DNA of 64,000 bases from Dehalococcoidia bacterium (GTDB lineage Bacteria > Chloroflexota > Dehalococcoidia > Lucifugimonadales > SHYT01). The notes under the pieces were generated by a model. That model was not told where the DNA came from. It saw nothing but the letters and a program-made list of their open reading frames with translations, and made no database searches. Position 1 is the stretch's first letter; each line of letters opens with the position of its first letter. The stretch covers positions 14,764-78,763 of the forward strand of contig SHYT01000008.1 in assembly GCA_009692665.1 (NCBI GenBank), read 5' to 3'. This document shows positions 9,048-46,053 of this stretch, piece after piece. Position numbers and translations under genes: made by a program.

Positions 9048-10307
9048 ATGTTCTTCATGCATTTCACAGAGAAACCTTGGCAAGACGACAGAACTGAGCG
9101 TGTAGGCCAGAACGACTTCGACTTGGAACTGAGCAACGGTTTCTATGACCCAGTGTTGGGCAACAAGCTCTATAACCGCTACATTGACGAAGATATTTTC
9201 TGTGAAGAGATGGGCTTTGACGGCCTCATGCTCAACGAGCACCATAGCACGCCAGGCTGCATGCAAGGTGTCACCAACGTTGGGTTGTCCATCTTGGCCC
9301 GCGTTACCAAGAAAATCAAGTTGATTCCCCTTGGGAACATTCTCCCTGCTTGGGATGACCCCATGTGGCTCGCGGAACAGCTAGCCATGATCGACGTGAT
9401 TTCCGGCGGCCGCTTGGTCTCCGGCTGGGTGCGTGGTACTGGCCGGGAGCACGTGGTGCACAACACGCATCCCCCGTCCAACTGGGAGCGGTTCCAAGAG
9501 GCACACGACCTCATCATCAAGACCTGGACAACACCTGGGCCGTTCCGCTGGGAAGGGAAGCATTTCCAGTACCGGTATGTGAACCCCTGGGTCGTGCCCT
9601 ACCAGAAACCCCATCCGCCTATCTGGATTCCGGGCACAGCAAGCCGTGCCACCGTGGATTGGGCTGCCAAGAACGGGTTCCCGTACATCATCTTGGGGGC
9701 CGAGCTGGAAGCGACAAAGAGCACGTTTGCGTACTACCACACCGCGGCTGCGGAGTATGGGTTCAAGACGGGTACCCAGCACAATGGGGAGCTCATCAAG
9801 GTCCACTGTGAAGCCACAGAAGAGAAGGCTGACGAGGTCGGACGGAAATTCCTGGGCGGAGTCCGGAATCCTTTCCTGCTTGGTAATGAAGGGCGTGTGA
9901 AGTCGTGGGTGCAAGCCCTCCCAGGGCTGTCACCGAGGAAAGCGGCTGAGAGGATCGAAACGGGCATCGGTCCAGTTGGCCGCGGCGGTCCGGCCGGTGG
10001 CGCACAGTCAGCCTCATACGAAGAACAGTCCGCAAAATACTTGATCATCAGCGGCACACCCAAAACCGTTATTACCAGGGTGAAACATGTGATGGAGCAG
10101 ACGAGGCCTGGTACCCTGCTCCTTTGGGACGGCGAAGGGGCCATGAACCATGAGGACCACATGCGCAGCCTGAAACTCCTGGGGACGGAAGTCCTGCCTG
10201 CGCTGCGTGACTATGCAAAAGAACTGGGCATCGTTGGCCCGTTTGACACGAATCCGGTTGCCGGTATGACCCGCGGCTTGGTCCCAGAGGCGGTAACGGC
10301 TCGCTAG
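9048..10307 (+). CDS. Luciferase-like (LLM) flavin-dependent monooxygenase, subfamily A copy 1
   Basis: GFDGLMLNEHHSTPGCMQ and IDVISGGRLVSGWVRG match the LLM TIM-barrel pattern. Close paralog of 27807-29075. Confidence 0.85.
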   Translation: MFFMHFTEKPWQDDRTERVGQNDFDLELSNGFYDPVLGNKLYNRYIDEDIFCEEMGFDGLMLNEHHSTPGCMQGVTNVGLSILARVTKKIKLIPLGNILPAWDDPMWLAEQLAMIDVISGGRLVSGWVRGTGREHVVHNTHPPSNWERFQEAHDLIIKTWTTPGPFRWEGKHFQYRYVNPWVVPYQKPHPPIWIPGTASRATVDWAAKNGFPYIILGAELEATKSTFAYYHTAAAEYGFKTGTQHNGELIKVHCEATEEKADEVGRKFLGGVRNPFLLGNEGRVKSWVQALPGLSPRKAAERIETGIGPVGRGGPAGGAQSASYEEQSAKYLIISGTPKTVITRVKHVMEQTRPGTLLLWDGEGAMNHEDHMRSLKLLGTEVLPALRDYAKELGIVGPFDTNPVAGMTRGLVPEAVTAR

Positions 10308-10381
10308 CCTCCGCGGTTTTTGGCATGGGATATTCCAAAACGCGCTATGAGCTAGTGTCGTAGCACAAAAAGGGGTTCTAG

Positions 10382-12262
10382 ATGTTAAATCCCGTCCGGC
10401 GCCCTATACCCATTCTGCTTGTTGGCATTCTAGCGCTCGTTTTTGCCTTAGCCTGTTCAAAAGCAGCAGCCCCTGCAGCAACGCCTTCACCTGCGCCATC
10501 GACTACCCCATCGCCCACGGCTGCGCCCGCCCCGGCCACTGCGCCCGCGGCAATTACGGCGCCACTGGCCTCCGCAGGAGTGTTCGCGGTCGATCCGCGG
10601 TCAGACGAGCCGGGGTCTACCATGCCGCAAGAGGTCTTGAAGTACAACTACACCAAGCTGCCCATGTGGACAAAAGCGAAGTACGGCGGCGAACGCGTCG
10701 GAAACGGGGGAACGTATAGCATCCTCCAGCAAAACCCGTTCACGTCCTTTAGCAAGCGCAACATCTTTGCGGGCATGTTCATCATGATTGACGCCGGGAC
10801 GTGCAGCTCCATTGGGCGGACGGACTTCTCTGAGTGCAATGGCGTCCGTAACAACGCCCTTGTTGGCACGCTGGTGCCTGGTCTGGTGGAGAAGTGGGAG
10901 CGGCCAGACCCGCTGACGGTGGTTCTTACCCTACGGCAGGGGGTGCTCTGGCCCAACTTGCCACCCATGAACCTCCGCCCCAACCGGAATGTCACCGTGG
11001 AAGATATGAAGTGGTACTTTGAAACGCAGAAGAATGAAGGCGTCTACCGGGACACCTTCGCATTGGTGGACACCTTTGAGGTCGTCGACAGCCGGACGTT
11101 GCGTCTGCGTTTTGCCCAGCCTCACTCCACCTTCATTCAGATGCTGGCCAACTACGGCCTTGGCATCATCCCCAGGGAATGCTACGAGGATAAGGCGGGA
11201 TGCCTGGCCAAGCGTCTCATCTCCCCAGGTCCGTTCATCTATGATGAAGCGGGTTCCGAGCCTGGTAACAAAGTGATCTACAAGAAGAATCCCGAATTTT
11301 GGCTCAAAGGACTCCCCTACCTGGACCAACTGCGGACGATCCGGGTCACGGATTTGGCGGCACAGCGGGCGGCCTATATCACGGCGCAGTTCGATCAGTT
11401 CGCGGTATATTCGCCGCGAGAGCGCGATCAGCTTCTGAAGGAAACGCCGGCTTCGCAAGTCCAAACACAGTATTGCTCCTGCGGGTCTGCCCATTTTCAG
11501 ATGCGGATGGACCAAGCGCCGTTGAACGACGTGCGTGTCCGCCGTGCGCTGTCCATGGCCATGGACAGGCCCAAGGCGTGGTTAGCTGGCAACGACGGCT
11601 ACAACGCCATGGGTTCACCGATGGCGTTCGACTTTTTGGGCCTCAACCTCTTCGTCAGCCTGAAAACTGCGGGCCCATACAACCAGTACAACCCTGCGGA
11701 AGCAAAACGGCTCCTTGCTGAAGCTGGCTATCCAAGCGGTTTTGCGATCACTGTTAACATAGCAAATAGTGGAGCCAGCACCCAGTACGGAAGCGTCGAG
11801 ATGGTTACTTCGTTACAACAGGACTGGGCCAAGGTCGGTGTGACCTTGCAACTAAAACTCATTGACGCTCAGGCGGAAGCTGGTTTGAGGCGCGACAAGA
11901 AATGGGATGGCATGCTGTTCAGTCAGTGCTATGACTGTAACGCCACTGACCCGGACAGCTACTTCCTCGTCGGCTATTCCAAGAGTGTCCGGAATTTGCA
12001 GGGGATCAATGACCCCATCATCGACGATATGTACCTGAAAGCCCGTTCTGAGGTGGACCCCAAGAAGCGGGAGCAGATCTACTGGGACTTCAACAACCGC
12101 ATGTTTGACCAGATGTATGGTATGCACTTTGGCAATCCTAGCGGCTTTGAGTTTTTTGCCCCATGGCTCAGGAACGCCTCAAGCCATGTGTGGGCCTACG
12201 CTAGTATCACCAACTTTGCCAGTTGGGTCATGTGGATTGATCCCGACCTCATGAAGAAATAA
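10382..12262 (+). CDS. Lipoprotein, ABC-type family-5 solute-binding protein (SBP1)
   Basis: Signal peptide with lipobox (LVFALAC), then a Pro/Ala/Thr-rich tether, then an SBP_bac_5-like body. Close paralog of 42915-44807. Confidence 0.85.
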   Translation: MLNPVRRPIPILLVGILALVFALACSKAAAPAATPSPAPSTTPSPTAAPAPATAPAAITAPLASAGVFAVDPRSDEPGSTMPQEVLKYNYTKLPMWTKAKYGGERVGNGGTYSILQQNPFTSFSKRNIFAGMFIMIDAGTCSSIGRTDFSECNGVRNNALVGTLVPGLVEKWERPDPLTVVLTLRQGVLWPNLPPMNLRPNRNVTVEDMKWYFETQKNEGVYRDTFALVDTFEVVDSRTLRLRFAQPHSTFIQMLANYGLGIIPRECYEDKAGCLAKRLISPGPFIYDEAGSEPGNKVIYKKNPEFWLKGLPYLDQLRTIRVTDLAAQRAAYITAQFDQFAVYSPRERDQLLKETPASQVQTQYCSCGSAHFQMRMDQAPLNDVRVRRALSMAMDRPKAWLAGNDGYNAMGSPMAFDFLGLNLFVSLKTAGPYNQYNPAEAKRLLAEAGYPSGFAITVNIANSGASTQYGSVEMVTSLQQDWAKVGVTLQLKLIDAQAEAGLRRDKKWDGMLFSQCYDCNATDPDSYFLVGYSKSVRNLQGINDPIIDDMYLKARSEVDPKKREQIYWDFNNRMFDQMYGMHFGNPSGFEFFAPWLRNASSHVWAYASITNFASWVMWIDPDLMKK

Positions 12263-12307
12263 CCTGAAGCGCGCTAGGTGTGGCTGGCGAACTACGGGAA
12301 GCTGCCA

Positions 12308-12346
12308 AAAGGCCGGCACTGAAGGAATTCAGTGCCGGCCTTTAAT
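12308..12346 (+). terminator. Rho-independent terminator after SBP1
   Basis: Perfect 16-bp stem AAAGGCCGGCACTGAA / TTCAGTGCCGGCCTTT with a GGAA loop, followed by TTTAATT. Confidence 0.7.
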
Positions 12347-12537
12347 TGCTGGCGGTTGTTTACGCGGCGGGCGTCGTGCCAACCTTGTGGCTTTGGGCGT
12401 AATGTGCCTCTCTTCTCGACCAATAGACTGTGCGTGAGGCTTTCGCGCCATGAAAGCCCTAGGGTTTCGTGTACTCGCTTTCTATGTGCCAGCGTGGAAG
12501 CGAATATCTAGGGAAATGGATATAAATAAAATGGACG

Positions 12538-13299
12538 CTACTTGTTAGCAGCAGCCAGCCACGGCTTCACAGGCTCCAGATCAAACGGGTGGTCGAGCTG
12601 TACCAGAAAGAGCTGAACGCCTGCCTTAAGGTACTCATCCACTCTGGAGACGGCGCTGGGCGGAAGGTTGGTCGAATGCTCAATGTCAGCCGGGTTTCGG
12701 CCTACTTTTTGGCACCAATCATCAAGAAGCCCGCTCCTCCGAGCGTACTCTTCTGGCGTGCCGCCAAAGTTGCAAATGTCCGCATATTGCGCGACAAGCC
12801 GGAGAGTAACTTTTTCGCCGCCGCCGCCAATGAGAATGGGCAGCGGGCCTACCGGCGGGGGATTCAGTTTGGCAAGTCGGCTCTTAATGACCGGGAGAAC
12901 CTCTCGGAAGTATTTGAGGCGGCTGGCCGGCGTGCCGAATTCGAAGCCGAACTCCTGGTAATCACGCGCACTATTTCCGGCGCCAAGCCCTAAGTTAAAC
13001 CGGCCGCCGCTGAGATGGTCAATGGTGCGGGCCATGTCAGCGATAAGGCTTGGATTACGGTAGCCCACGGAGCTGACCATGGAGCCAATACGCGCGTGGC
13101 TTGTCTCACAAGCCATCGCCGCCATCAAGGACCAGCATTCAAAGTGGGAACCAGCCGGGTCACCGGAGAGGGGATAGAAATGGTCCCACGTTGTGATGCA
13201 GTCCACCCCAAGTTGATCAGCCCCCTTCCAGGCCGTGCGAAGCGCCTGGATGGTGGTGTGCTGCGGGCGTAAATGTACCCCAACTTTGAATCGAGCCAT
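12538..13299 (-). CDS. LLM-class oxidoreductase (probably F420-dependent)
   Basis: MARFKVGVHLRPQ..., WDHFYP, GYRNPSLIADMARTIDHLSGGRFNLGLGAG and ILIGGGGEKVTLRL resemble F420-dependent LLM families. ATG at 13299 chosen; the longest ORF starts at TTG 13398. Confidence 0.8.
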   Translation of the reverse strand: MARFKVGVHLRPQHTTIQALRTAWKGADQLGVDCITTWDHFYPLSGDPAGSHFECWSLMAAMACETSHARIGSMVSSVGYRNPSLIADMARTIDHLSGGRFNLGLGAGNSARDYQEFGFEFGTPASRLKYFREVLPVIKSRLAKLNPPPVGPLPILIGGGGEKVTLRLVAQYADICNFGGTPEEYARRSGLLDDWCQKVGRNPADIEHSTNLPPSAVSRVDEYLKAGVQLFLVQLDHPFDLEPVKPWLAAANK

Positions 13300-13440
13300 A
13301 CGTGGGCCATTGTAGCAGACCTTGTTGGCAATGAGACCGCTCGTGAAGCCGTCGCTCTGTGGCCCTAGAATCACGGTCTCGTTGTCATTGCTCTCCAAAT
13401 AGCTTTCCCGCTCAGGTGGTTTGGTGTCTATACCTGTTCT

Positions 13441-17511: not shown

Positions 17512-17531
17512 CGCATTGTAGGAGGCAGAAC

Positions 17532-18530: not shown

Positions 18531-18808
18531 GAAGGTCGCAGGCGCAGACCCCCGAGCCGTGCCGAGGCGTAGAGTCAAAATGGAAAGGGCAGGAAAGTCC
18601 CTCTCCTCGTGGGAGAGGTCGCAGACTCTGAGCTTGCCGAAGAGGATTTAGGGTGAGGTTGGCTGGGCGGAGAGGATCTGCCGCTACAGCGACAGTTTTC
18701 AATACAGATTGGCATTCTGGCAAGAGCACGTACAATTCCGAGCCACAGCGTTACCCGACTGCTGCCGCCAGGCTCCGAGTAGGGTGGAATCCGCAGCCCT
18801 TCGTGTCT
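18531..18808. repeat. Intergenic repeat cluster B
   Basis: Cores GTCGCAGGCGCAGACCCCCGAGCC (18535-18558) and GTCGCAGACTCTGAGC (18618-18633), and the hairpin CCTCTCC-TCGTG-GGAGAGG. GTTACCCGACTGC (18750) and GGGTGGAATCCGCAGCCCTTCG (18782-18803) are matched in cluster C. Confidence 0.6.
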
Positions 18809-19481
18809 ACCACCGTTCGAATTTGATGCGCTCTGAGGGCACATGCATGCTCCGCAGGTCCTTATTGAGTCCGTCAACCATTTCTTGTGGCCCGCACAAA
18901 TAAAATACAGGGCGCTTTTTGTCAAACTCTTCTAGTTCCTTGCGCCCGATTCGGCCTTCGCCCGATTCCGTAACGCGGGGCACATAGTGAATGTGGCTGG
19001 CGTTGGCGGCAAGACGGCCCAACTCTTTTCGATACAGTAGCTCGTCAGCGCTATGCACGCTGTGTACAAGTGTGGTCTGAACACGTGGTTCAAACCGCGC
19101 AACGAATCGAACAATGCTCATGAGCGGCGTGAGACCAATGCCTCCCGCGATTAGTAGTAGGTCTTGTGCGGAACCGGGTTTGTAGTAAAAGTCGCCATAA
19201 CCGCCGTCTAAATACAGGGTATCGTCAACCGTTGCGGATTCATGGAGATAGTGGGTCACAGGATTTATTCCCACACGCTTCACTGCCAGCTCAATAAACT
19301 CGGTGTCAGCCGGTGTTGACGTCATTGAATAGCCGGCGACAATCTCCGGCTTTTGGGGGTCCAGATAACAGTCTAGCCATTGGCCGGGCAGGAACTGAAA
19401 TGTCTGTCCGGATAGCACCAGCTTAAACGAGCGTACGGTAGGGGTTTCTTGTGTTATTGCTGCGATTGTGACGCGGATCAT
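18807..19481 (-). CDS. FAD/NAD(P)-binding ferredoxin-reductase-type oxidoreductase
   Basis: FR-type FAD domain (GQWLDCYL, AGYSMTS) and NAD-binding LLLIAGGIGLTPLMSI. ATG 19481 follows GGAG; the longest ORF starts at GTG 19505. Confidence 0.75.
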   Translation of the reverse strand: MIRVTIAAITQETPTVRSFKLVLSGQTFQFLPGQWLDCYLDPQKPEIVAGYSMTSTPADTEFIELAVKRVGINPVTHYLHESATVDDTLYLDGGYGDFYYKPGSAQDLLLIAGGIGLTPLMSIVRFVARFEPRVQTTLVHSVHSADELLYRKELGRLAANASHIHYVPRVTESGEGRIGRKELEEFDKKRPVFYLCGPQEMVDGLNKDLRSMHVPSERIKFERW

Positions 19482-19752
19482 CAAGACTCCAAGTGGCGAA
19501 AGCACCCAGGTTGAGAAGATCAGTCGGCTGAATTATATGGCCCATAGCGTTCAAATGGGCCGGCTATCTTCCAGGAAACCGTGCCCCGTTCACCTGCACT
19601 GTAGTCACGCATGGTAGAATCGGGACATACTGTCAGGACGCAGTTCGGAGCGGCCATCCGCATCACATCTGGCGAGAGTAGTGGTAGCAACGAGCACCTC
19701 TGATACGACCTGTTACCACGGTTATCCTACATTGCAGAAGGAGGCATCCACA

Positions 19753-22146: not shown

Positions 22147-22171
22147 TTCCTAACCAAGGGCCGCAAGAAGA

Positions 22172-22200
22172 AGCTAGGGCGGGTACATCCCGCCCTAGCT
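22172..22200 (+). terminator. Terminator hairpin after L1
   Basis: Perfect 12-bp stem AGCTAGGGCGGG / CCCGCCCTAGCT with a TACAT loop, 26 nt after the stop. No strong T tract. Confidence 0.5.
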
Positions 22201-22362
22201 GTTATGAGGATGTCCGTCGAGCGCAGCGAAGGAGAAATCCTCCCGCCCTCGTATCCAATCCAACTACATGGCCGCTGAGGCTGCTCTCGCACTACCCAAG
22301 AGCCTTACACAAAAATGCTCGGTGCATGCACGAAAAGCCGCCGCCATCCACACGACCTTCTG

Positions 22363-22512
22363 TTGTCATTCTGAACCGCAGTGTTACCCGACTCGGTGTT
22401 ACACGACTGCTAACAGTAGGGCTCCGCGTAGGGTGAAGAATCCGCAGCCCTTCGCAGACTCCGAGCCGGGCCGAGGGGTCGCAGATCCTGAGCCAAAGCC
22501 GAAGGAGAGAAA
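22363..22512. repeat. Intergenic repeat cluster C
   Basis: GTTACCCGACT (22383), GGGTGAAGAATCCGCAGCCCTTCG (22431-22454), cores CGCAGACTCCGAGCC (22453-22467) and GTCGCAGATCCTGAGCC (22478-22494), then AAAGCCGAAGGAGAG. Co-linear with part of cluster B. Confidence 0.6.
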
Positions 22513-23263
22513 CGTCCCGACCTTTTTGTCCAAAACCACTACCTAAAGAAAGCGATCATCAACCCCTTGCTTCACACCTCTCGCGGCGAAATACTTGAAA
22601 GAGTGCGGAGTCGTGCTCTGGCTCGCTACGAAAACAATGTGCAATTGAAAACGTGCCAACCAGCAGCCAGTGGCACTGTGGCTAATCCGAAGTGCCGTTC
22701 TAAGTTGCACTGCAACTCCTCAGAAATACCTGACTGCCTGGCGTGACGCGGCCTTGCACGAAAATCTGCCCTGAGGATACTCGTGCGCAGGCACGCTCAG
22801 TCCCCCCTCCTGCGAGAGTGGGCGAGGGTGCTACGCAACACCCCGTGCCGATGCACTTGCACTCAAGCACCAAACAGTTTGAAAGCAAAGCCCCCGTGAG
22901 CAATGGAAAGGGGCAAGGAAGTAACGTTACATAATAAGTTAGCTAGTAAAGTACAGGAGGGGTCATGAAGGCTCACCACGCTGGGGACTGTGTTTCTACA
23001 AGGGGCAATCTTGATCCCAGAATCAGGGCAAGGTATCTTGTGACACCCTCAGTGCCTGGGCCATCGCGGGCCAGTTGCGACACAATGCACTCATTCCTGT
23101 AATCCTCAACGGCAATGCAGCGGAAGTCGTTAACGCTGCATCTCCCGCTCCAATGACAGTAGTGGCCATACTTGGCAGGCTTGACGTATAACAGTAAGAT
23201 TCATGCAACCTGCAAGTACCCACAGCGGCACAATACGGAAGTATCTAGCAAGAAGGGGACTCG

Positions 23264-25588: not shown

Positions 25589-25760
25589 CCTTAATTCCTT
25601 TAAGAGGGGTCTGCGTAGACCTATCTGGAGAGCATATATGGTAGAGTAGACCACCTTTGTAAAATGGCGCCAGGCTTACAGGACGGGCCAGCAATAGGGT
25701 TGCTGAACGACAATGGCTAGGAAGCAGCGCTTAAGTTCATACGTGAAGGAGGCGGGTTCT

Positions 25761-27698: not shown

Positions 27699-27726
27699 AG
27701 CCTTCTTGCAACCTTGACTTTAGGCT

Positions 27727-27769
27727 GATAGCATCGCCAGAGGAGTGTCAATGCTCTGGCGATGCTATC
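27727..27769 (+). promoter_or_regulatory. Intercistronic hairpin between SBP2 and LLM-A2
   Basis: Perfect 16-bp inverted repeat GATAGCATCGCCAGAG / CTCTGGCGATGCTATC with an 11-nt loop. No T tract. Confidence 0.5.
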
Positions 27770-27806
27770 GTGCTGCAAGAGTTGAAACGGAAAAAGGGGA
27801 AGTTCC

Positions 27807-30640: not shown

Positions 30641-31138
30641 TCAGCTACCCTTAGGCCGTCCCTCGAACTTCCACACATTAGCTGGTTGTTGCGTACTGAG
30701 CCGCCAACGGGGCATCTGCTTGCCGTCCGCCGAGATTTTTTCCCAGTACAGTTCCACCTTGGAGTTAATGCCAGCCTGGTCATCGCCTTCGTCAATGACA
30801 CCCATGACACGGACGGGTAGTCCCGTCACACCACGCATATCATCTAGATCAATGACAGCAGAAAGGTACGGGGTAGCTTCCGCAAACGCACCCAAAATAG
30901 GTTGTGTAACGACGATGAACGAGTAAATAGCACCCTTACCACTGCTTTCCACCCAGCTCGTCTTTTCGAAGTTCCCGCAACTGGAGCATCCTATTGCTCC
31001 AGGCGGCCACCACCGGTGACCGCAAACATCACAGCTTCTGACCATGAGCTTGCCTTCCTTGGTGAAATCCCACCAAGGGGCGGCATCATAGTCTGGGTTA
31101 ATCGTGAACTTGGACCAGTTGATTTTGGGACTCCCCAT
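30641..31138 (-). CDS. DUF35-type zinc-ribbon/OB-fold protein
   Basis: CDVCGHRWWPP...CSSCG four-Cys ribbon followed by an OB-like C-terminus. ATG 31138 follows GGAGAGGG. Lies 11 nt downstream of the thiolase-like gene. Confidence 0.8.
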   Translation of the reverse strand: MGSPKINWSKFTINPDYDAAPWWDFTKEGKLMVRSCDVCGHRWWPPGAIGCSSCGNFEKTSWVESSGKGAIYSFIVVTQPILGAFAEATPYLSAVIDLDDMRGVTGLPVRVMGVIDEGDDQAGINSKVELYWEKISADGKQMPRWRLSTQQPANVWKFEGRPKGS

Positions 31139-31149
31139 TTTGCCCTCTC

Positions 31150-32391: not shown

Positions 32392-32684
32392 CGATATCCT
32401 CCTCAGAACACACAACACACACAACTTGACATCTATCCGGCGTTCTGTGTGGCACACTTTAACTGAGAATCTACCGGTTGGCAACAAACCGTGTCCTCCA
32501 AGCCTGACTGCATTAGTTTCTTCCCATTGCCCATCAACTGGGCTATGGCTGTGGTTTTGGGCATCAAAAAGACGCTGGTTCAAATACATGGAGCACATGG
32601 TGCTATAGTGGGTGCGCTGCAGGAGCACCCTGGCAGAAGCGTATTTCTCGTGGGAAGCTCGCTAGGAGTCAGGAGGAGGCGATT

Positions 32685-36925: not shown

Positions 36926-38014
36926 ATGGACTGGTTAAGTGAACCCTGCCGGCAAAACATACCGGGGCTTGACTACGATTTGGAAGCCATGCGAAAACAG
37001 TTCCTTGGACTGGAAACGAAGCCAGTTCAAGGACGGTATCCAGTCGAATACGATCCGATTCGTCGCCACTGCCATATGACCGGTGACATGAATCCTCTTT
37101 TTCTTGACCCAACCTATGGTGCTAAGAGTAAATATGGGGCTGTTATCGTCCCGCCGCCGCTAGTTGCATATTTCGGGGTTCCAGGTGTGTGGCCTCCTAG
37201 ATCGCTGGAAGAACCACGACTTCCGGCAATACCTATGCCGGGTAATCGGTCCATCGCAATGATGGTGGAGACTGAGTGGCATAAGCCCGTGAAAGTGGGT
37301 GACCGGCTCAGTAGCATGAGCCGCTACGCCGATCTCTACTTCCTTTCTATCCGACTGGACTGGTGCGCCGTTTGGGTAACCACACAGAATATCCTTTCTA
37401 ACCAGCACGGTGATGCCGTCGCCACTGTTATGCAGATGTCACTGCGCCATCGCGGCGTTGACCAAGTACCCGACGGCCAGAAGGGAGCCCCAAATGTGGC
37501 GCAGGCGCCGGTACCTCCAATGCCGCAGCCCATTGGACAAACTAGGCCCCTGGTCACCCCAAAGCCCCAAGCGGAGCAAATCTACTGGGAAGACGTTAAA
37601 GAAGGCGATTTTCTTCCCGTTCTCGAATATCCCATCACCGAGACGCGTATTGTTGAGCAGGTAAGTGGGTCCCAGGACTTTTATGCTGTCCACCATGATC
37701 GTGCATTTGCCAGGGCGGCAGGACACAGCGATATCTTTGTGAACAATGGGTTCATGCGGGGCTGCCTAGCTCGCGTACTCACCGACTGGATAGGAGATGA
37801 AGGCTGGCTGCGCAAGCTCCGAGTAGAAATGCGCCGCATGAATGGTCCTGGAGACCTATTGATTTGCACCGGAAAAGTAGTTCGCAAGTACGAAGACGGC
37901 GCCGAAAAAATCGTTGAATGCGAAGTCTGGGCTGAGAACGCGCGTGTAGGGGTTACCACTCCGTGCCGTGCGTGGGTGGCATTGCCAAGCCGTTCGGGCC
38001 AATCGCGCCATTAG
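36926..38014 (+). CDS. MaoC-like double hot-dog enoyl-CoA hydratase (N- and C-terminal hot-dog domains fused)
   Basis: The N-terminal half carries GDMNPLFLDP. The C-terminal half carries FYAVHHDRAFARAAGH (D-x-N-x-H-type hydratase motif region). ATG 36926; the longest ORF starts at TTG 36911. Confidence 0.8.
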   Translation: MDWLSEPCRQNIPGLDYDLEAMRKQFLGLETKPVQGRYPVEYDPIRRHCHMTGDMNPLFLDPTYGAKSKYGAVIVPPPLVAYFGVPGVWPPRSLEEPRLPAIPMPGNRSIAMMVETEWHKPVKVGDRLSSMSRYADLYFLSIRLDWCAVWVTTQNILSNQHGDAVATVMQMSLRHRGVDQVPDGQKGAPNVAQAPVPPMPQPIGQTRPLVTPKPQAEQIYWEDVKEGDFLPVLEYPITETRIVEQVSGSQDFYAVHHDRAFARAAGHSDIFVNNGFMRGCLARVLTDWIGDEGWLRKLRVEMRRMNGPGDLLICTGKVVRKYEDGAEKIVECEVWAENARVGVTTPCRAWVALPSRSGQSRH

Positions 38015-38194
38015 TGTGATTTGTAAGGTTTGCGCGTCTAAGAGTCGAGTAGGTACACTGCAAAGTCTTTCTCGAAGAAGCGCTCTGGAGCGATTTGCAA
38101 CGCGTTGTCTAGCGTATTTTCGGAGCCTGAACGGTTACCATGGCCAACTGTAGGCGGCTCGCTAACTGCCTTCATTAGAATCGCTATGTTGCAA

Positions 38195-38793
38195 TTATTG
38201 ATTGTTCGGCCTGCAGCGGATGCTCTCAATGAATGACGAAGCAATTGTTTGTTGCCGCACATTAAACGGCGCACGTGGACTCGGATTCTTCCAAATGGTG
38301 TACAGGCCCATAAAGATGGCATACATTTCCTCGGCTAATGTCCTTAGATCCAGATCTGGCCTAACAGTTCCTTCTCGAATGCCTTTTTCAATAATCCCTT
38401 GAATTCCCTTGATATGGCTGTCAACTGACTCCCAGGTGGCTGCCGCAATGGGGGAAAGATTGCTTGGCGCGGCGGCCGCGAGGACTGCAAGATAAAAGTG
38501 GCGCGTTGGAACGTTTGCGTAGGCCAGTCCGTCATGAAGTACGTAAAGCAGCCCATCAATGGCAGTCCCGTGACTCTCGGCGTATCGATGACATGCTGGA
38601 ACCGTCCACATCCTTCTTGGAACACTGCCTGGAGGATATCTATTTTGTTCTTAAAATGACGATACAGAGAACTTTGTGTTAAGCCTACCGCTCGCGCCAA
38701 ATCCCTCATCGTTAGGGCGTCGGCACCTTCAGTCGACAGGATGTGGCGAGCTGCGGCGAGGATCTCTTTCTTTCGGTCTAAAGATTTTGGCAT
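38195..38793 (-). pseudogene. TetR-family regulator split by a 1-nt frameshift
   Basis: ORF 38344-38793 encodes the HTH domain (ALTMRDLARAVGLTQSSLYRHFKNK) and then drifts into Pro/Arg-rich nonsense. ORF 38195-38611, in the -1 frame, encodes a plausible TetR C-terminal ligand domain. Together they total about 196 aa. Confidence 0.7.
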
Positions 38794-38978
38794 AACCCTC
38801 CGCCTGCCAACAATGTAAGGCTCAGCGCATAAAGAATGTAAGCTCGTCTACACTGCGGTCAAGCTACTTATTTCCCGATTTCAGAAAGTGCCAATAACGA
38901 GTAATAATTCACGTCTTAAGTTGTTCACAATAGTTTTTGCGTAGATGCAAATCTTGCTCGGGCAACTGAGCTAAATGC

Positions 38979-39022
38979 TTGACATCCGAGATCAATTGCG
39001 GTACCTTACGGCCCACCGTAAG
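38979..39022 (+). promoter_or_regulatory. Candidate promoter (TTGACA-17-TACCTT) with overlapping inverted repeat
   Basis: TTGACA at 38979-38984, a 17-nt spacer, TACCTT at 39002-39007. The IR CTTACGG-CCCA-CCGTAAG at 39005-39022 could be the TetR operator. Lies upstream of 39122. Confidence 0.3.
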
Positions 39023-39121
39023 CACTTGTGAACCACTGTTCGCCAGTGCTGGCTGTCGGCTTAGTCTCCATAATTTTGTGGACGATTCGGAAAGGTTTTG
39101 ATTTCATAGATAGGGGAGCCC

Positions 39122-40438
39122 ATGCAATCCTGGCGTGAAGAGTATGCCGGAAAGCTGGTTTCTGCTGACCAGGCAGTCGCGAAAATTGGGCCGAATCAGC
39201 GGATAGTGATCCCGATAACTGGAGAGCCGCCGGCTGTGCTCACTGCTTTGGCGAAGCACACAGCCGATTTTAAGAATGTCCAGTTGCTAATGGGTGTTCC
39301 TCGTCAGGAGTGGGAATTCTTTCGCTCTGGCGTGGGTGGGCACATTGCAGTGGGCTTCGAAAATTTCGTGGGTGCCGGTGGACGCGCGGTCGTTGAAGAG
39401 CGATTGGTCGATTACTATCCCACGCTTTTCTCGTTCCACTCCAAAATTAATGAGGAGCGCAAAGGTGAAGCTCCTCCCATAGATGTCACCACATTCGTTG
39501 TGTCCCCCCCTGATGACGAGGGGTATTGCTACTTTGGGACGAGCGTGTGGTACAAGCCGGTAATAGCGCGTTGCGCAAAGGTCATTATTGCCGAAGTACA
39601 GTCCAACGTGATTCCTACAAGAGGTGGGGGCCGTCTTCACGTCTCCGAGATCGATTGGTTCGTAGAGAACGAAGTGCCTTTCGTTTCTCGTGGAGTACCA
39701 GACGCCGATGATGTCAGCATAAAAATTGCGACATCTATTCACGGACTTATTCGCGATGGAGATACGCTTCAACTGGGTACGGGTAGAGCTGCATTAAGCA
39801 TGCCTCTCGATATCCTTCTTAAAGGGAAAAATGACCTGGGGTGGCATTCTGAGATAACTCCAGGGCCCATTGTGAAGCGGATCAAAGCAAAACAGATCAA
39901 TAGCTCGCGGAAAACCCTTAATCGCGGCATAGCGGTAACAACTCTTGTACAAAACCATGACAAAGAAGATCTTGAGTTTGTGAGGGACAACCCTGCATTC
40001 GAGGTTCGGGATTCAACCTATGTGAACAATGTGGTCACGATTGCTACTCACGACAACATGGTTGCCATGAACAGCGGTCTTGCCATCGACCTAACGGGGC
40101 AGATCGCGTCCGAGACCATCGGTGGCGCTATTTTCAATGGCATGGGCGGACAGCAAGAGTTTGTTTTCGGGGCGATGCTTTCCAAAGGGGGGCGATCGGT
40201 GCACGTGCTGCCTTCCACGGCAGGCGATGGGTTTATTTCACGTATCGTCCCCAGACTTCCTGAGGGTGAGTACGTCACCATTCCCCGGTCTTGGGCGGAC
40301 CATGTGGTCACCGAGTGGGGCGTTGCCAAACTGCTCGGCAAATCCCACCGTCAGCGCGCCGAGGCGTTGATCGAGGTTGCCCATCCAGCGTTTCGTGAAG
40401 AACTTAAGGCGGCGGCAAGGAAAATGCACTGGCCTTAA
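39122..40438 (+). CDS. Acetyl-CoA hydrolase/transferase-family CoA-transferase (4-hydroxybutyrate/succinyl-CoA:acetate type)
   Basis: 438 aa. N-terminal ...KLVSADQAVAKIGPNQRIVI, internal GTGRAAL, and SGLAIDLTGQIASE...GMGGQQEF, typical of the family. Confidence 0.8.
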   Translation: MQSWREEYAGKLVSADQAVAKIGPNQRIVIPITGEPPAVLTALAKHTADFKNVQLLMGVPRQEWEFFRSGVGGHIAVGFENFVGAGGRAVVEERLVDYYPTLFSFHSKINEERKGEAPPIDVTTFVVSPPDDEGYCYFGTSVWYKPVIARCAKVIIAEVQSNVIPTRGGGRLHVSEIDWFVENEVPFVSRGVPDADDVSIKIATSIHGLIRDGDTLQLGTGRAALSMPLDILLKGKNDLGWHSEITPGPIVKRIKAKQINSSRKTLNRGIAVTTLVQNHDKEDLEFVRDNPAFEVRDSTYVNNVVTIATHDNMVAMNSGLAIDLTGQIASETIGGAIFNGMGGQQEFVFGAMLSKGGRSVHVLPSTAGDGFISRIVPRLPEGEYVTIPRSWADHVVTEWGVAKLLGKSHRQRAEALIEVAHPAFREELKAAARKMHWP

Positions 40439-40507: not shown

Positions 40508-41530
40508 ATGAAGTTCGGCGCGTTTGGTCTATCAGGCAGCTACCAGCAGGTCATTCAGGAATCCCAGGAGGCAGAGCGCTTAGGGTTTGATGGTGTTTTC
40601 TTTGGGCAACACCACCAGACGACGGAGGCTGCTGCACGTCAGGCAGTGTTCCAGAACCGCATTGTTGGAAATTTGGTGCTCTGCACAGCAGTGGCCGCCC
40701 GAACGGAGCGGGTACACATTGGGACTGCTATTCACCTTCTTCCCCTAAGTCATCCCGTACAAGTAGCAGAGGATACCGCGGCCATTGATATTGTTTCAGG
40801 CGGCCGGTTTATCCTTGGCGTGGGCATTGGTTACCGGGAATACGACTTTGATACGTTTGGCATACCAATAGCCCAGCGTGTGTCTCGGTTTGAGGAAGGG
40901 CTGGAGATTGTGCGCCGCGCGTGGACGGAGGACTCATTCTCCTTCGTGGGCAAACGGTTCACCTTGCGAAACGTCTCGGTGCCAAAGCCAATTCAGAAGC
41001 CGCATCCTCCTCTTTGGGTAGGGCCATGGTCTATGGAAGGAGCCAAGCGCGCAGCCAGGCATGGGGCGGGCTTCATTTCTGACCCGATTCACGATACACC
41101 GTCCCTTCAGCGCATGATCACCCTGTACAAGGATCTCTCCAAGGCGCGTGGCATGAAGCCATACGTAGTCATCATGCGGGAAATGATGCTTGCTGAGAGT
41201 CAGGAAAAAGCCAAGGAACTATACATGAACTCCGTTCTGGGGACGTATCGCAACTACTGGACGCACCACGGCATCAATCCAGAGTTGGAGCCATGGGTCA
41301 AAGAAATTAAGTCACAGGAAGAAGTCACCTGGGAACGTTTGACGAAGAACGACCGTGTGTTGTACGGTTCCCCAAGCGACATTGTTAAGCAAATCAAGAA
41401 GCTCAACGACGACCTCGGAGGCATTGACTACTTAATGCCAGTGTTTATCCACCCGCCTCAGCAGGGGCATGAGAAGGCAATGGAAGCGATGAAGTTATTC
41501 GCTGAAAAGGTCATACCCAATTTCCGATAG
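40508..41530 (+). CDS. Luciferase-like (LLM) flavin-dependent oxidoreductase, subfamily B copy 1
   Basis: LGFDGVFFGQHH, IDIVSGGRFILGVGIGY and KPHPPLWVG. Paralog of 44998-46053. Confidence 0.85.
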   Translation: MKFGAFGLSGSYQQVIQESQEAERLGFDGVFFGQHHQTTEAAARQAVFQNRIVGNLVLCTAVAARTERVHIGTAIHLLPLSHPVQVAEDTAAIDIVSGGRFILGVGIGYREYDFDTFGIPIAQRVSRFEEGLEIVRRAWTEDSFSFVGKRFTLRNVSVPKPIQKPHPPLWVGPWSMEGAKRAARHGAGFISDPIHDTPSLQRMITLYKDLSKARGMKPYVVIMREMMLAESQEKAKELYMNSVLGTYRNYWTHHGINPELEPWVKEIKSQEEVTWERLTKNDRVLYGSPSDIVKQIKKLNDDLGGIDYLMPVFIHPPQQGHEKAMEAMKLFAEKVIPNFR

Positions 41531-41755: not shown

Positions 41756-42718
41756 ATGGTCGTCTACCACAGCCACTTTGCGAAGCCACTGGACTACCAA
41801 GATATCATCTACAAAAAGGAAGGCAAAATCGCCCGAATCATCTTCAACCGGCCGGAGAAGATGAACCCGTTGCGGCACATCCTCCGGGGCGAAACGATCC
41901 ACGCTCTCAAGGTAGCAGAGACCGACCCGGAAGTAAGTGTGATCATTATCAAGGGCAATGGGCGGTGCTTCAGCGCCGGCCACGACTTGGGCGGGGGCAA
42001 TGAGGGGTTAACCCTACCGGATGTGGGCGCCCGGTTTCCTGGCCCCGGCCAGTGGCAGCGGCATTTGGGTGCCGGATACTTCAGCGGCATCTGGGACAAC
42101 GAAAAGCCGGTCATCGCTCAGGCGCACGGCTACTGTCTAGCGGGTGCAACGGAGCTCGCATCTTTCTGCGACCTGTTCGTCGTGTCTGAAGACTGCCAGA
42201 TAGGCTACCCGCCGATGCGGGCCATGGCCGTGACGAACAACATGTGGTTCCCCTGGCACATGCACATGCGCAAGGCAAAGGAGATGTGCTTCACCGGAGA
42301 CTCCATCACGGGAACTGAAGCAGTGGAGATCGGATTGGCGAACTACGCGGTGCCTGCGGAAGAGTTGGACGCGTTCACCACCAAACTGGCGAACCGCATC
42401 GCCCTGGTCCCGAGTTCGCTGCTGGCGCTCAGCAAGCGGTCTATCAACAAGACCTACGAGATCATGGGGATGCGGGTAGCCCTCGAGGTCTCTAACGTCG
42501 TCGCCGCCCTGAATCCCTTGCGGCCGGACGCCGGCGAGTTCGCGAGGATATCCAAGGAATTTGGCCTTAAGGCTGCCTTGAACTGGCGCGACGAGAAGTT
42601 CGGCGATTACGGAACAAAGCTGGACGTCAAACAGGCCCGTGAAGCCCGCCTGAAGGACCGGAAGCCTTCCACTGTTCCGGTGAAGAACCTGAAGGGTGTG
42701 GGTGAAGAAGAAAACTAG
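41756..42718 (+). CDS. Enoyl-CoA hydratase/isomerase (crotonase fold), long form
   Basis: IIFNRPEKMNPL and IIKGNGRCFSAGHDLGGG match the fold. ATG follows GGGGGGGAG. Confidence 0.8.
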   Translation: MVVYHSHFAKPLDYQDIIYKKEGKIARIIFNRPEKMNPLRHILRGETIHALKVAETDPEVSVIIIKGNGRCFSAGHDLGGGNEGLTLPDVGARFPGPGQWQRHLGAGYFSGIWDNEKPVIAQAHGYCLAGATELASFCDLFVVSEDCQIGYPPMRAMAVTNNMWFPWHMHMRKAKEMCFTGDSITGTEAVEIGLANYAVPAEELDAFTTKLANRIALVPSSLLALSKRSINKTYEIMGMRVALEVSNVVAALNPLRPDAGEFARISKEFGLKAALNWRDEKFGDYGTKLDVKQAREARLKDRKPSTVPVKNLKGVGEEEN

Positions 42719-42726
42719 CAGACTGG

Positions 42727-42764
42727 GCAGGCTGCGGACGGAATTCCGTCCGTAGCCTGCTTTT
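42727..42764 (+). terminator. Rho-independent terminator
   Basis: GCAGGCTGCGGACGG-AATT-CCGTCCGTAGCCTGC forms a 15-bp stem with one G-U pair, followed by TTTT. Confidence 0.8.
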
Positions 42765-42914
42765 AGTGGGTAGGACGCACATATCCGGACAGCTTTTAGC
42801 GGAAACGCCGGAAAGCTTTGTAGGACATGCGCGGATAGACCGGACTTGGCGAGGAGTTGGCAGCATCAGTCCACAGAGCGTCGAAAACGCATGACGAGAG
42901 GAAAGGGAGAAATA

Positions 42915-44807
42915 ATGGTTTCACGCCTACGACGACCAGGAACTGCCCTGTTCTTAGGTGTCATCCTAATGTTGGTTTTAGCTCTAGCTTGCGCTGGAGG
43001 AAAGACGGCTGCTCCGGCAGCCCCAGCTCCAGCACCGTCTACAAGCCCGGTGGCCGCTTCAGCACCGGCAACGACTCCTGCCAAAACGGTGGGGGAGACT
43101 ACCGGTACAGTTCCAGTTCTGGCTGCGGAACTCAAGCTCGACCCGCGTTCGGATGAGCCTGGTTCCACCATGCCGCAGGAAGCCCTGAAATATCACCACA
43201 CCAAGATGCCACTATGGACGAAGGCCAAGTACGGCGGTGAGCGTGTTGGGACCGGGGGGACCTACAACATTCTGGGCCAGAACCCCTTCACCGTCTTTAG
43301 CAAGCGTAACAATTTCATGGGCATGTTCATCATGATCGACGCTGGGACGTGCAGCTCTATCGGGCGCACAGACTTTTCTGTCTGTAATGGCGTCCGCAAC
43401 AACAACCTTACAGGCGTCTTAGTGCCCGGTATCATTGAGAAATGGGACCGGCCAGATTCCCTAACTGTGGTATTTACCATCCGTCAAGGGGTTCTTTGGC
43501 CCAACCTGCCTCCTATGAACCTCCGTCCCAACCGCAATGTAACCGTGGAGGACGTGAAGTGGTACTTTGAGACGCAGAAGAAAGAGGGCGTCTACCGGGA
43601 CACCTTCACGCTGGTGGACACCTTTGAGGTCGTCGACCAGAGGACATTGCGGCTCAAGTTCTCACAGCCCCACGCTACATTCATCACCATGATGGCGAAC
43701 TACGGCCTGGGCATCATTCCCCGCGAGTGCTACGAGGACAAGGATGGATGCCTTAGTAAGCGGCTCATTTCCCCCGGCCCGTTTATCTTTGACGAAGCAA
43801 GCTACCAGCCGCGGAGTGTGGCGATTTACAAGAAGAACCCCGAGTTTTGGCTGAAGGGTCTGCCTTATCTTGATCAGCTCCGGACCATCGCTGTCTTGGA
43901 CACGAATGCAGCGCGGGCGGCGTACATCACGGGGCAGTTCGACCAGTTCCAGAACTTTTCGCCTCGAGAACGTGACGCGCTGTTGAAGCAGGTGCCAAAT
44001 TCCCAGATCCAGACGCAGTATTGCTCCTGTGGGTCGGCGCATTTCCTGTTGAGATTAGACAAGGCGCCGTACAACGACGTTCGCGTGCGCCGCGCGTTGT
44101 CCATGGGCATGGACCGGCCAAAAGCCTGGCTCGCGGCCAACGACGGCTATAACGCCATGGGTATGCCGATGGCGTTTGACTTCCTGGGGCTCGAGATGTT
44201 CGTCAGTCTGAAGACGGCAGGTCCCACCAACCAGTACAACCCGACGGAGGCAAAGCGGCTCCTTACTGAAGCCGGGTATGCCAACGGGCTTACCGTTCCT
44301 ATTATCATGGCCACTACCTGGCCCACTTCGTGGAGCAGTGCAGACCTAGTTACGTCCATCCAGGAAGACTGGAAGAAAATCGGCGTAACCCTGGACTTAA
44401 AGGTCGTCGACCCTCTACAAGATGCGGGCATGCGGCGCGACAAGAACTGGGACGGCGGGCTGTTCAGCCAGTGCTGGGACTGCAGCGCCACGGACCCGGA
44501 CAGCTACTTCTTGATGGCGTACTCCAAGAGCCCGCGTAACCTGATGGGCCTCAATGACCCGATCATTGACGACATTTACCTCAAGGCCCGCTCGGAGCTC
44601 GACCCCAAGAAGCGTGAGCAACTCTACTGGGACTTCACGAACCGCATGTATGACCAGCAGTATGGCATCCACTTTGGCAATCCAAGTGGCTTCGAGTTCT
44701 TTGCACCGTGGCTTAGAAACGCCGCGAGCCATGTGTATGCGTATGGTGGCGTCACTAACTTCAGTTCCTGGGTCATGTGGGTTGATCCTGACTTGATGAA
44801 GAAATAA
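42915..44807 (+). CDS. Lipoprotein, ABC-type family-5 solute-binding protein (SBP3)
   Basis: ATG 42915 follows AAGGGAG. Lipobox LALAC, Ala/Pro-rich tether, and a body co-linear with and highly similar to SBP1. Confidence 0.85.
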   Translation: MVSRLRRPGTALFLGVILMLVLALACAGGKTAAPAAPAPAPSTSPVAASAPATTPAKTVGETTGTVPVLAAELKLDPRSDEPGSTMPQEALKYHHTKMPLWTKAKYGGERVGTGGTYNILGQNPFTVFSKRNNFMGMFIMIDAGTCSSIGRTDFSVCNGVRNNNLTGVLVPGIIEKWDRPDSLTVVFTIRQGVLWPNLPPMNLRPNRNVTVEDVKWYFETQKKEGVYRDTFTLVDTFEVVDQRTLRLKFSQPHATFITMMANYGLGIIPRECYEDKDGCLSKRLISPGPFIFDEASYQPRSVAIYKKNPEFWLKGLPYLDQLRTIAVLDTNAARAAYITGQFDQFQNFSPRERDALLKQVPNSQIQTQYCSCGSAHFLLRLDKAPYNDVRVRRALSMGMDRPKAWLAANDGYNAMGMPMAFDFLGLEMFVSLKTAGPTNQYNPTEAKRLLTEAGYANGLTVPIIMATTWPTSWSSADLVTSIQEDWKKIGVTLDLKVVDPLQDAGMRRDKNWDGGLFSQCWDCSATDPDSYFLMAYSKSPRNLMGLNDPIIDDIYLKARSELDPKKREQLYWDFTNRMYDQQYGIHFGNPSGFEFFAPWLRNAASHVYAYGGVTNFSSWVMWVDPDLMKK

Positions 44808-44921: not shown

Positions 44922-44997
44922 GCTCGGGTCTCTTTGGTCTCAGAATGTCGGGTTCAGCAGACGACCCAACAAATTTGGAAGGGGAGATGAGCATACA

Positions 44998-46053
44998 ATG
45001 AAATTTGCACCTTTCGGCGTTGGCGGCGGCGCATTTGAGGCTGCGGCAGAGACTGCGCAATTGGTTGAGTCAATCGGATATGATGGTTTATTCTTTGGAT
45101 TCCATCACTCGCCGGACTTGCAAGCGGCGGTGGGGATTAAGAACGCGCCTCCACTTGGCGGCGGTGGCAGTGACCGGGGCGGTTCCCAGTGGCCGCGCAT
45201 CGCGGCCCTGGCTGCGCGGACCAAAACGCTCACGTTTGGCACAGGGATATTCCTCCTGCCTTTTGCGCATCCGCTCAACGTCGCGGAAGACGTCGCGACT
45301 ATTGACCACATTTCTAAAGGGCGCATCATTCTGGGCGTGGGACCCGGCTACAACAAAGCCGACTTTGATATGTTCGGCATGCCCGTCTCGAATCGGGTCT
45401 CTTTGTTTGAGGAAGGCTTAGAAGTAATCAGGCGGGCATGGACGGAAGACAAGTTTAATTTTGTCGGGAAGCGATATACCATTCGCAATGCCCGCGTTCT
45501 TCCCAAGCCGTATCAGAAGCCGCACCCACCAATTTGGGTGGGCCCGTGGAGCATGGAAGGGTTCAAGCGCGCTGCACGGCAGGGGGATGGAGTCATCACC
45601 GATCCGATGCAGGGCAAGGCGGCGCTCAAGGCATTTATCGCTGCGTACCGTGAACTGTGTCTCGCCAGAGGCAAGAAGCCGGTCGTGGCATTAATGCGCG
45701 AGATGTTGCTCGCATCTAGCAAAGAGGAAGCGCTGCAGCTCTACGGCAAGTCCATTATCGGAACCATGCAGTACTATGCCTGGGGCGGCGTCCTGAACAA
45801 AGAATATGAGCCATGGCTCAAGGACGTGAAGTCGTACGACCAGATCACGTTCCAGATGGTCAACGCCGACAATCGCCTTCTCTGGGGCTCTCCAGACGAC
45901 ATAATTGGCCAGATCCACCAGATGAATGAAGAGTTCGGTGGTATCGATTACCTCATTCCCGCATTCGTAGGCACCGGTGGCCCGGATGCCGCGAAGCACC
46001 AGCAACAAACATTGCGTCTTTTCGGCGAAAAGGTTATGCCCAAGTTCAAGTAG
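44998..46053 (+). CDS. Luciferase-like (LLM) flavin-dependent oxidoreustase, subfamily B copy 2
   Basis: IGYDGLFFGFHH, IDHISKGRIILGVGPGY and KPHPPIWVGPWSMEG. Carries a Gly-rich insertion (PPLGGGGSDRGGS) relative to copy 1. Confidence 0.85.
   Translation: MKFAPFGVGGGAFEAAAETAQLVESIGYDGLFFGFHHSPDLQAAVGIKNAPPLGGGGSDRGGSQWPRIAALAARTKTLTFGTGIFLLPFAHPLNVAEDVATIDHISKGRIILGVGPGYNKADFDMFGMPVSNRVSLFEEGLEVIRRAWTEDKFNFVGKRYTIRNARVLPKPYQKPHPPIWVGPWSMEGFKRAARQGDGVITDPMQGKAALKAFIAAYRELCLARGKKPVVALMREMLLASSKEEALQLYGKSIIGTMQYYAWGGVLNKEYEPWLKDVKSYDQITFQMVNADNRLLWGSPDDIIGQIHQMNEEFGGIDYLIPAFVGTGGPDAAKHQQQTLRLFGEKVMPKFK

Follow-up and report, generated by a model that had tools for sequence, protein, structure and literature searches.

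Genes for orphan family-5 solute-binding proteins beside luciferase-like monooxygenase genes in a Dehalococcoidia bacterium

We analyzed a stretch of 64,000 nucleotides from a Dehalococcoidia bacterium (assembly GCA_009692665.1, contig SHYT01000008.1, positions 14,764 to 78,763 of the forward strand), which is called the window below and in which all positions are counted from its first nucleotide. In the window, each of three genes for family-5 solute-binding proteins (SBPs), SBP1 to SBP3, lies directly beside a gene for a luciferase-like monooxygenase (LLM) on the same strand, and no gene for a permease or ATPase of an ATP-binding cassette (ABC) transporter is present. The linkage between SBP and LLM genes is non-random and recurs in two related organisms, but it is not general in the clade to which the three SBPs belong. 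In contrast, the orphan state, that is, the separation from translocator genes, is a property of the whole SBP clade. We consider it somewhat more probable than not that these SBPs are orphan capture proteins docking to a common Opp/Dpp core whose genes lie elsewhere, and that they are linked to the enzymes oxidizing the imported substrates. The initial annotation of the window had already reported the pairing; the observation was confirmed with corrections, and its interpretation was partly supported.

All open reading frames of 150 aa or more in the window were scanned against Pfam, which confirmed the families proposed for the three SBPs and for four LLMs (Bac_luciferase, E 3e-32 to 5e-55). 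SBP1 (10382-12262, plus strand, 626 aa; PF00496, E 6e-50), SBP2 (25761-27698, plus strand, 645 aa, with a longer start at 25713; E 1.5e-56), and SBP3 (42915-44807, plus strand, 630 aa from the ATG at 42915, with a longer start at 42846; E 9e-51) score 171-193 bits against the SBP_bac_5 cut-off of 32.4. Their N-termini run from positive charge through a hydrophobic stretch to a lipobox-type cysteine (FALAC at residue 21 in SBP1, LGVAC in SBP2, and LALAC in SBP3), and the 50 residues past this cysteine consist of 66-86% Pro, Ala, Thr, and Ser, in agreement with the lipobox signal peptide and Pro/Ala/Thr tether described previously. The lipobox was judged solely by the pattern [..][..][AGS]C at residues 21-22. 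Lipobox and tether are present in 15 of the 17 aligned clade members, and the remaining two are short gene calls. Purine runs that resemble a Shine-Dalgarno sequence are found in front of the ATGs at 10382, 25761 (AAGGAGG), and 42915. SBP1 is 100% identical to GenBank MSP78902.1, which is called there from Met81 (546 aa), whereas the ENA call has 626 aa; the PGAP call thus drops the signal peptide, the lipobox, and the tether (10382-10621). SBP3 corresponds to MSP78926.1 (638 aa). Two 540-aa calls (P0020 and P0021) from L001, a locus of a related organism, seem to be truncated in the same way as MSP78902.1.

Pfam, NCBIfam, and PDB profiles agree in placing SBP1 to SBP3 in the DppA/OppA/AgaA group, with the full two-lobe family-5 body kept. 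The nearest solved structures are those of AapF, AgaA, DppA, OppA, HbpA, and MppA (E 1e-33 to 1e-39 for the clade profile against DppA, OppA, HbpA, AgaA, and MppA). Because these structures match at the profile level only, no ligand can be assigned from them. The clade is small and sharply bounded, with approximately 36 members among 5.8 billion clusters; past its edge, the E-values of the SBP search fall from 1e-97 to 1e-58, and the more distant SBP1 homologues carry the labels SAR202 cluster or Chloroflexi. Four cysteines are invariant across the clade, which would fit a disulfide-bonded extracytoplasmic protein. Judging from their families and their export and anchor signals, SBP1 to SBP3 are predicted to be lipid-anchored extracytoplasmic family-5 SBPs of a lineage-specific Chloroflexota clade.

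The window contains six LLM genes (Bac_luciferase, 102-188 bits against a cut-off of 27.9) and not four, as those at 12538-13398 and 56339-57418, both on the minus strand, had been overlooked. LLM-A (9048-10307, plus strand, 419 aa; PF00296, E 3e-32) ends 74 nt 5' of SBP1, LLM-A' (27807-29075, plus strand; E 1.4e-36) begins 108 nt 3' of SBP2, and LLM-B' (44998-46053, plus strand, 351 aa; E 5e-55) begins 190 nt 3' of SBP3. Thus, the statement that each SBP has a direct LLM neighbor on the same strand holds. However, LLM-B (40508-41530, plus strand, 340 aa; E 8e-54), which had been counted as such a neighbor, is located two genes 5' of SBP3 and is separated from it by an enoyl-CoA hydratase (ECH) gene (41756-42718, plus strand; ECH_1, E 2e-33) directly 5' of SBP3. 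The LLM at 12538 represents a third type (PF00296, E 5e-29) and is predicted to belong to an F420-dependent class (TIGR03856, 302 bits against a cut-off of 243.7); it converges on SBP1, so that both flanks of SBP1 are LLMs. The sixth LLM, at 56339 (PF00296, E 5e-51; TIGR03858, 495 bits against a cut-off of 462), lies away from all SBP genes; as an internal control, it shows that LLM genes occur alone too.

Two LLM subfamilies had been proposed to take part in the pairing, but at least four are involved. Curated subfamily cut-offs are reached by three of the LLMs, which fall into two predicted F420-dependent classes and one monooxygenase subfamily. LLM-B' passes the F420-class model TIGR03619 (169.8 bits against a cut-off of 166.9), which LLM-B narrowly misses (161.8 bits); these two proteins are 48% identical. 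LLM-A and LLM-A' pass no NCBIfam subfamily cut-off. They share 83.5% amino acid and 78% nucleotide identity, with the similarity confined to the coding region, and by this measure LLM-A' is a recent paralogue of LLM-A. The LLM-A family is very large and environmental (7083 matches at E <=1e-20). LLM-A shows approximately 60% identity to hundreds of clusters, some with 200-290 sequences, including sequences from Tectomicrobia and from an assembly of the sponge Geodia barretti. The idea that the LLMs are secreted and work outside the cell was rejected because none of the window LLMs has a signal peptide.

LLMs occupy four of the six SBP flanks in the window, and the gene directly 5' of SBP2 encodes a molybdopterin-hydroxylase large subunit (23264-25588). 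When the 52 genes of the window were permuted, four or more LLM flanks were obtained with P = 0.0013, and an LLM neighbor for all three SBPs with P = 0.009. The metagenome-assembled genome (MAG) encodes a fourth SBP of the clade, MSP78840.1 (P0005), which is 74% identical to SBP1 and has an aldo-keto reductase gene as its neighbor; with this gene included, LLMs occupy four of eight flanks (binomial P about 0.003-0.008, again post hoc). For comparison with other organisms, clade loci were gathered wherever they could be reached, including six short loci obtained by aligning the clade-specific N-terminal region with metagenome contigs, and were annotated with profiles for SBP5, LLM, and DppB/C and with an ATPase motif. 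The background consisted of 130 generic family-5 SBPs among the matches listed for the full SBP alignment in genome contigs; their identities were 31% or less, and the source genome was not represented. An LLM gene was found within 600 bp of 6 of the 26 clade SBPs versus 1 of the 130 generic SBPs (P = 8e-5).

Two relatives show the same association. In L096, the gene for LLM347, 72% identical to LLM-B', lies directly 5' of an SBP gene whose product is 76% identical to SBP3; this pair is orthologous to SBP3 and LLM-B', with the order flipped relative to the window. L001 has the order LLM-SBP-LLM-LLM-SBP, in which a MarR gene adjoins one of the LLMs, and it also has an ECH gene paired with an SBP gene, orthologous to the ECH at 41756 and to SBP3 with identities of 55% and 51%, respectively. 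The adjacency is therefore present in these relatives, but the other clade contexts sampled have different enzymes as neighbors. Over the whole clade, the neighbors vary among LLM, enoyl-CoA hydratase, CoA-transferase, aldo-keto reductase, alpha/beta hydrolase, zinc alcohol dehydrogenase, GFO/IDH/MocA, and MmgE/PrpD genes. In a deeper branch of the clade, an NYN/OST-HTH (LOTUS) gene is found 3' of the SBP gene on two independent contigs (the contig of P0033, and L087, 1987-3081).

We considered whether duplication of a single block of two genes had given rise to all three pairs. SBP1 and SBP3 are 72% identical and SBP1 and SBP2 only 40%; the 83.5%-identical LLM-A copies thus adjoin the 40%-identical SBPs, and the 72%-identical SBPs adjoin different LLM types. 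Because these identities are discordant and the nucleotide similarity stops at the gene ends, a single duplicated block was rejected. Two samples (L094, 4786-11142, and L095, 2137-8494) contain a block in which acetyl-CoA hydrolase/transferase, clade SBP, GFO/IDH/MocA, phosphotriesterase-family, and NIPSNAP genes follow one another, and parts of this block are divided between the SBP1 and SBP3 neighborhoods in the window: its acetyl-CoA hydrolase is 67% identical to that encoded at 39122, and its GFO oxidoreductase is 54% identical to that encoded at 13813. Compared with this layout, the window LLMs look like insertions beside the SBP genes, which would suggest recurrent gain.

The intergenic regions differ among the pairs. 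The 74-nt spacer between LLM-A and SBP1 has no significant structure (z = -0.5 for the fold against shuffles), so that co-transcription is plausible. This is the only pair that resembles a tight operon, and the term 'operon' is plausibly justified for one pair at most. The spacer between SBP3 and LLM-B' is weakly structured (z = -1.5). In the spacer between SBP2 and LLM-A', a hairpin of approximately 17-20 bp without a U tract is located at 27723-27771 on the plus strand (palindrome 27727-27769; z = -4.7) and may be a partial terminator or an mRNA-stabilizing element. A hairpin followed by UUUU in the spacer between the ECH gene and SBP3 (42725-42766, plus strand, palindrome 42727-42760; z = -6.9) looks like an intrinsic terminator. 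A strong hairpin with a run of A on one side and a run of T on the other (12300-12357) lies between the convergent SBP1 and LLM genes; the fold of 12263-12380 has an energy of -65 kcal/mol (z = -5.5), none of 200 shuffles was equally stable, and the element looks like a bidirectional terminator. Hairpins 3' of SBP genes can be mRNA-stabilizing elements in other ABC operons, and those 3' of the SBP genes here could also have this function. Scans of the window for promoter and terminator consensus sequences gave counts at the level of shuffled sequences.

One explanation of the adjacency is coincidence: SBP and LLM paralogues may have multiplied in flexible catabolic islands and become neighbors without sharing a substrate. 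We regard this as rather unlikely. LLMs account for 6 of the 52 window genes, the LLM-A family has thousands of members, and expansions of FMNO (LLM) paralogues are known in SAR202 genomes (PMC5395668). The permutation P values were obtained post hoc at this high local density, and all of the statistics rest on a few related organisms in which the density of LLM genes is very high. The adjacency is limited to three related organisms, namely the window organism and those of L001 and L096. Most clade SBPs elsewhere have neighbors other than LLMs (AKR, hydrolase, ADH, CoA-transferase, PrpD, GFO, NYN, and FtsY), and the fourth clade SBP of the same MAG has no LLM neighbor. The LLMs involved come from five or more unrelated subfamilies. 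Strong hairpins separate SBP2 from LLM-A' and the ECH gene from SBP3, with another 3' of SBP1; with hairpins at most junctions, most pairs may not be co-transcribed. Finally, apart from the source contig, the contigs of close LLM-A homologues matched no contig of the listed SBP homologues in length, which is weak evidence as the SBP search was non-exhaustive and missed SBP2 itself. All of these points weigh against a functional link between the neighbors. On the other hand, the permutation P value of 0.0013 was reached even at the local LLM density, the orthologous pair in L096 is still adjacent though its order is flipped, the arrangement recurs in L001 with LLMs of other types, and LLMs are more frequent near clade SBPs than near generic SBPs (6 of 26 versus 1 of 130).

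The reported absence of ABC permease and ATPase genes from the window was verified. Pfam detected no ABC membrane or ATPase component in any open reading frame of 150 aa or more, and a six-frame scan of the 64 kb with DppB and DppC profiles and with a Walker-A plus LSGGQ pattern gave no hits; the only carriers noted, four of the major facilitator superfamily (MFS), are present. Nor were ABC genes found in approximately 12 kb of flanking sequence (approximately 10 kb downstream and 2.3 kb upstream), taken from another assembly of the sample. Among the loci examined, a permease gene was located within 3 kb of 0 of the 26 clade SBPs versus 71 of the 130 generic family-5 SBPs (Fisher P = 2e-8). 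Clade SBPs often form tandem arrays of two to three paralogues without a permease (L085, L086, L092 at 1-5291, and L093 at 3248-9657; also L089), with CoA-transferase/TPP (thiamine pyrophosphate) enzyme genes or MmgE/PrpD genes 3' of the tandem SBPs in L092 and L093.

An Opp-type core is found in a relative. The L094 contig carries an operon with a canonical family-5 SBP, DppB, and DppC at a distance of 2 kb from an orphan SBP of the clade, and its permease shows 69-82% conservation throughout Chloroflexota, Dehalococcoides among them. Through this relative, an Opp-type core is documented in the lineage. In other Dehalococcoidia loci (L029, L041, and L075), three to four SBP genes accompany one permease pair, and some Dehalococcoidia SBP arrays have no permease within 10 kb; therefore, it is usual in the phylum for a translocator to have several SBPs and for SBPs to be orphans. 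The earlier suggestion of capture-plus-oxygenation modules that share a distant ABC core remains the best reading and gains from the L094 operon, but no core could be assigned to this genome: of 20 candidate permease clusters retrieved with the L094 DppB-like query, none has an MSP accession of this MAG, which counts against the reading.

It is improbable, in our estimate, that each SBP has instead a dedicated permease/ATPase operon elsewhere with no shared core, a situation in which the link with the LLMs may still hold. The inspected part of the genome amounts to approximately 76 kb, and Chloroflexota genomes contain many family-5 systems, both of which leave room for such operons. However, dedicated partners are usually encoded together with their SBP, as in 71 of the 130 generic cases and in none of the 26 clade copies; in the class, one permease pair commonly accompanies a tandem array of SBPs; and known orphans share a core (PMC3173086, PMC5736914). 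Still less probable is the possibility that these SBP-like lipoproteins serve no ABC importer and instead sense ligands for a signaling protein, assist MFS or other carriers, or bind or buffer compounds outside the cell. The lack of a nearby permease in every clade context, the four MFS genes in the window, and the drop in E-values that sets the clade well apart from canonical SBPs would agree with it. Against it, none of the 26 copies adjoins a gene for a histidine kinase, a chemoreceptor, or an MFS carrier, which also argues against the sensor function offered as an alternative in the initial annotation. Furthermore, the only regulators nearby are PadR (50576) and, in L001, the MarR whose gene adjoins an LLM gene, the two lobes of the family-5 body are fully retained, and the L094 operon provides an Opp-type core in the lineage.

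We therefore return to orphan capture proteins with a shared core, for which the following scheme may be proposed. Each SBP paralogue, lipid-anchored outside the membrane, would capture a different small organic substrate and hand it to an ABC translocator of the Opp/Dpp type, which all paralogues would share and whose genes would lie elsewhere in the genome. In the cytoplasm, the neighboring LLMs would take the first oxidative or reductive step using flavin or F420. Other, less frequent neighbors, namely enoyl-CoA hydratase, CoA-transferases, and dehydrogenases, would also act on the imported compounds, with CoA-transferases, hydratases, and acyl-CoA dehydrogenases acting after the LLM step. 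SBP and LLM genes might then have been kept or repeatedly brought together because their products act on the same substrate. The protein families, the export and anchor signals, the lack of permease genes throughout the clade, the enriched and recurring LLM neighbors, and the Opp-type operon of a relative rest on observation; the docking to a shared core, the substrate matching of SBP and LLM, and the co-regulation of their genes are inferred. A broader and distinctly more tentative idea is that the clade consists of plug-in specificity modules, in which each new catabolic paralogue, especially of the expanded FMNO/LLM oxygenases presumed to attack recalcitrant dissolved organic matter, gains its own capture protein and all of them use one conserved Opp-type translocator.

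If the plug-in idea is true, the ligand of an SBP would directly report the substrate of the adjoining oxygenase. LLM/FMNO expansions of SAR202-type bacteria are central to ideas on the oxidation of refractory dissolved organic carbon, and SBP ligand screening is an established strategy for assigning catabolic pathways; if the SBPs match the adjacent enzymes, screening the soluble SBPs for ligands would be a practical route to LLM substrates. One translocator could then be reused by many independently evolving capture proteins. Attention in the SAR202-type group would also move from MFS carriers, which the literature stresses, to high-affinity ABC uptake. Should the adjacency merely reflect the density of paralogues, the locus would be no more than an ordinary catabolic island.

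The pairing of an SBP with a flavin monooxygenase had been regarded as an operon type not yet described, but there are several precedents, namely ssuEADCB, EppABCD-EmoA, the pair TIGR04028/TIGR04027, and, for the orphan state, MppA and YgiS. The classical case of an SBP gene beside an LLM monooxygenase gene is ssuEADCB, although SsuA belongs to a different SBP family from SBP1 to SBP3. The NCBIfam models TIGR04028 (SBP_KPN_01854, a family-5 SBP) and TIGR04027 (LLM_KPN_01858) are named after neighboring Klebsiella loci; SBP1 to SBP3 score 52.6-62 bits against the TIGR04028 cut-off of 468.5, and the best LLM scores 108.8 bits against the TIGR04027 cut-off of 412.9. In these systems, as in the window, an SBP gene stands beside an LLM gene, but they are complete ABC operons. 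Complete family-5 ABC operons with LLM neighbors are also present in our background set (L079, L047, and L010). In the EDTA operon of Chelativorans sp. BNC1, which encodes EppABCD with EmoA and EmoB, EppA is an SBP of cluster C (NikA/DppA/OppA type), and EmoA is an FMNH2-dependent LLM-family monooxygenase that oxidizes the imported compound (PMC7312458). The gene for a family-5-type SBP is thus encoded with an LLM gene in both cases; however, the permeases, the ATPase, and a flavin reductase share the Epp operon, and the neighborhood in the window is without them.

As for the orphan state, E. coli MppA and YgiS are orphan family-5 SBPs that use OppBCDF (PMC3173086), and Borrelia has five OppA proteins (OppA1-5), several of which are presumed to plug into one core (PMC5736914). 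Like these proteins, SBP1 to SBP3 belong to the DppA/OppA family, and their genes stand apart from permease and ATPase genes. Unlike the MppA-type orphans, their orphan state is fixed across the clade (0 of 26), their genes lie within clusters of catabolic enzymes, ordinary peptide ligands are unlikely, and no shared core was found in this genome among the 20 clusters mentioned above. The Dehalococcoidia and Rokubacteria loci L029, L041, L044, L062, and L075 likewise have several family-5 SBP paralogues for one permease pair, but these arrays are still physically joined to the permease genes. Both halves of the arrangement, orphan SBPs and an SBP beside an LLM, are therefore already known, and it is their combination that differs. 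What is distinct here is that SBP and enzyme are encoded together with the translocator genes away, repeatedly and with different LLM types, in a clade without linked permeases in the copies sampled (0 of 26).

The gene set of the window is mostly catabolic. In addition to the LLMs, it includes three family-III CoA-transferases, four enoyl-CoA hydratases, three acyl-CoA dehydrogenases, a MaoC dehydratase, short-chain dehydrogenases, LutB/C-like genes, and the PadR regulator; Pfam places the four MFS carriers at 2404, 16029 (minus strand), 34713, and 52462. This content agrees with the paralogue expansions described for SAR202 genomes, which resemble the window in their many LLMs, enoyl-CoA hydratases, family-III CoA-transferases, MFS carriers, and acyl-CoA dehydrogenases (PMC5395668). 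Neither that genome paper nor the SAR202 cultivation paper discusses a linkage of FMNO and SBP genes. The window can best be explained as a section of a catabolic gene island from a SAR202-like Dehalococcoidia bacterium.

The sole FNR-like reductase of the window is a 232-aa NAD(P)H flavin/ferredoxin reductase (18807-19505, minus strand; FAD_binding_6 and NAD_binding_1), located 6.5 kb from SBP1 on the other strand. Its PDB matches include reductase domains of flavohaemoproteins and E. coli Fre (1qfj, E 9e-8), and it might be a weak candidate donor of reduced flavin for two-component LLMs. Close to it, two paralogous genes for molybdopterin-hydroxylase large subunits adjoin each other (19681-22146 and 23264-25588) and share approximately 70% nucleotide identity in patches. 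The only genes for CoxM-like (FAD-binding) and CoxS-like (2Fe-2S) subunits are located 23 kb away, at 48722-49603 and 49575-50093.

In three gaps of 1.1-1.5 kb (22146-23264, 38014-39122, and 53871-55415), there are short open reading frames only and no Pfam, Rfam, or tRNA hits; Rfam and tRNA scans of the window as a whole also found nothing. At 30641-32628 on the minus strand, a thiolase-like gene and a gene of the ChsH2 type (OB/zinc-ribbon) overlap by approximately 70 nt. Such an arrangement is usual for the SCP-x-type thiolase/aldolase pairs that degrade steroid or branched-chain side chains, and the pair is adjoined by a metallophosphoesterase gene and an enoyl-CoA hydratase gene. A 39-nt sequence is present in two inverted copies (22557-22595 and 53939-53977) that are 92% complementary. 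Both copies are intergenic, lie right past the end of an open reading frame, and have no Rfam match; the sequence may be a small repeated intergenic element.

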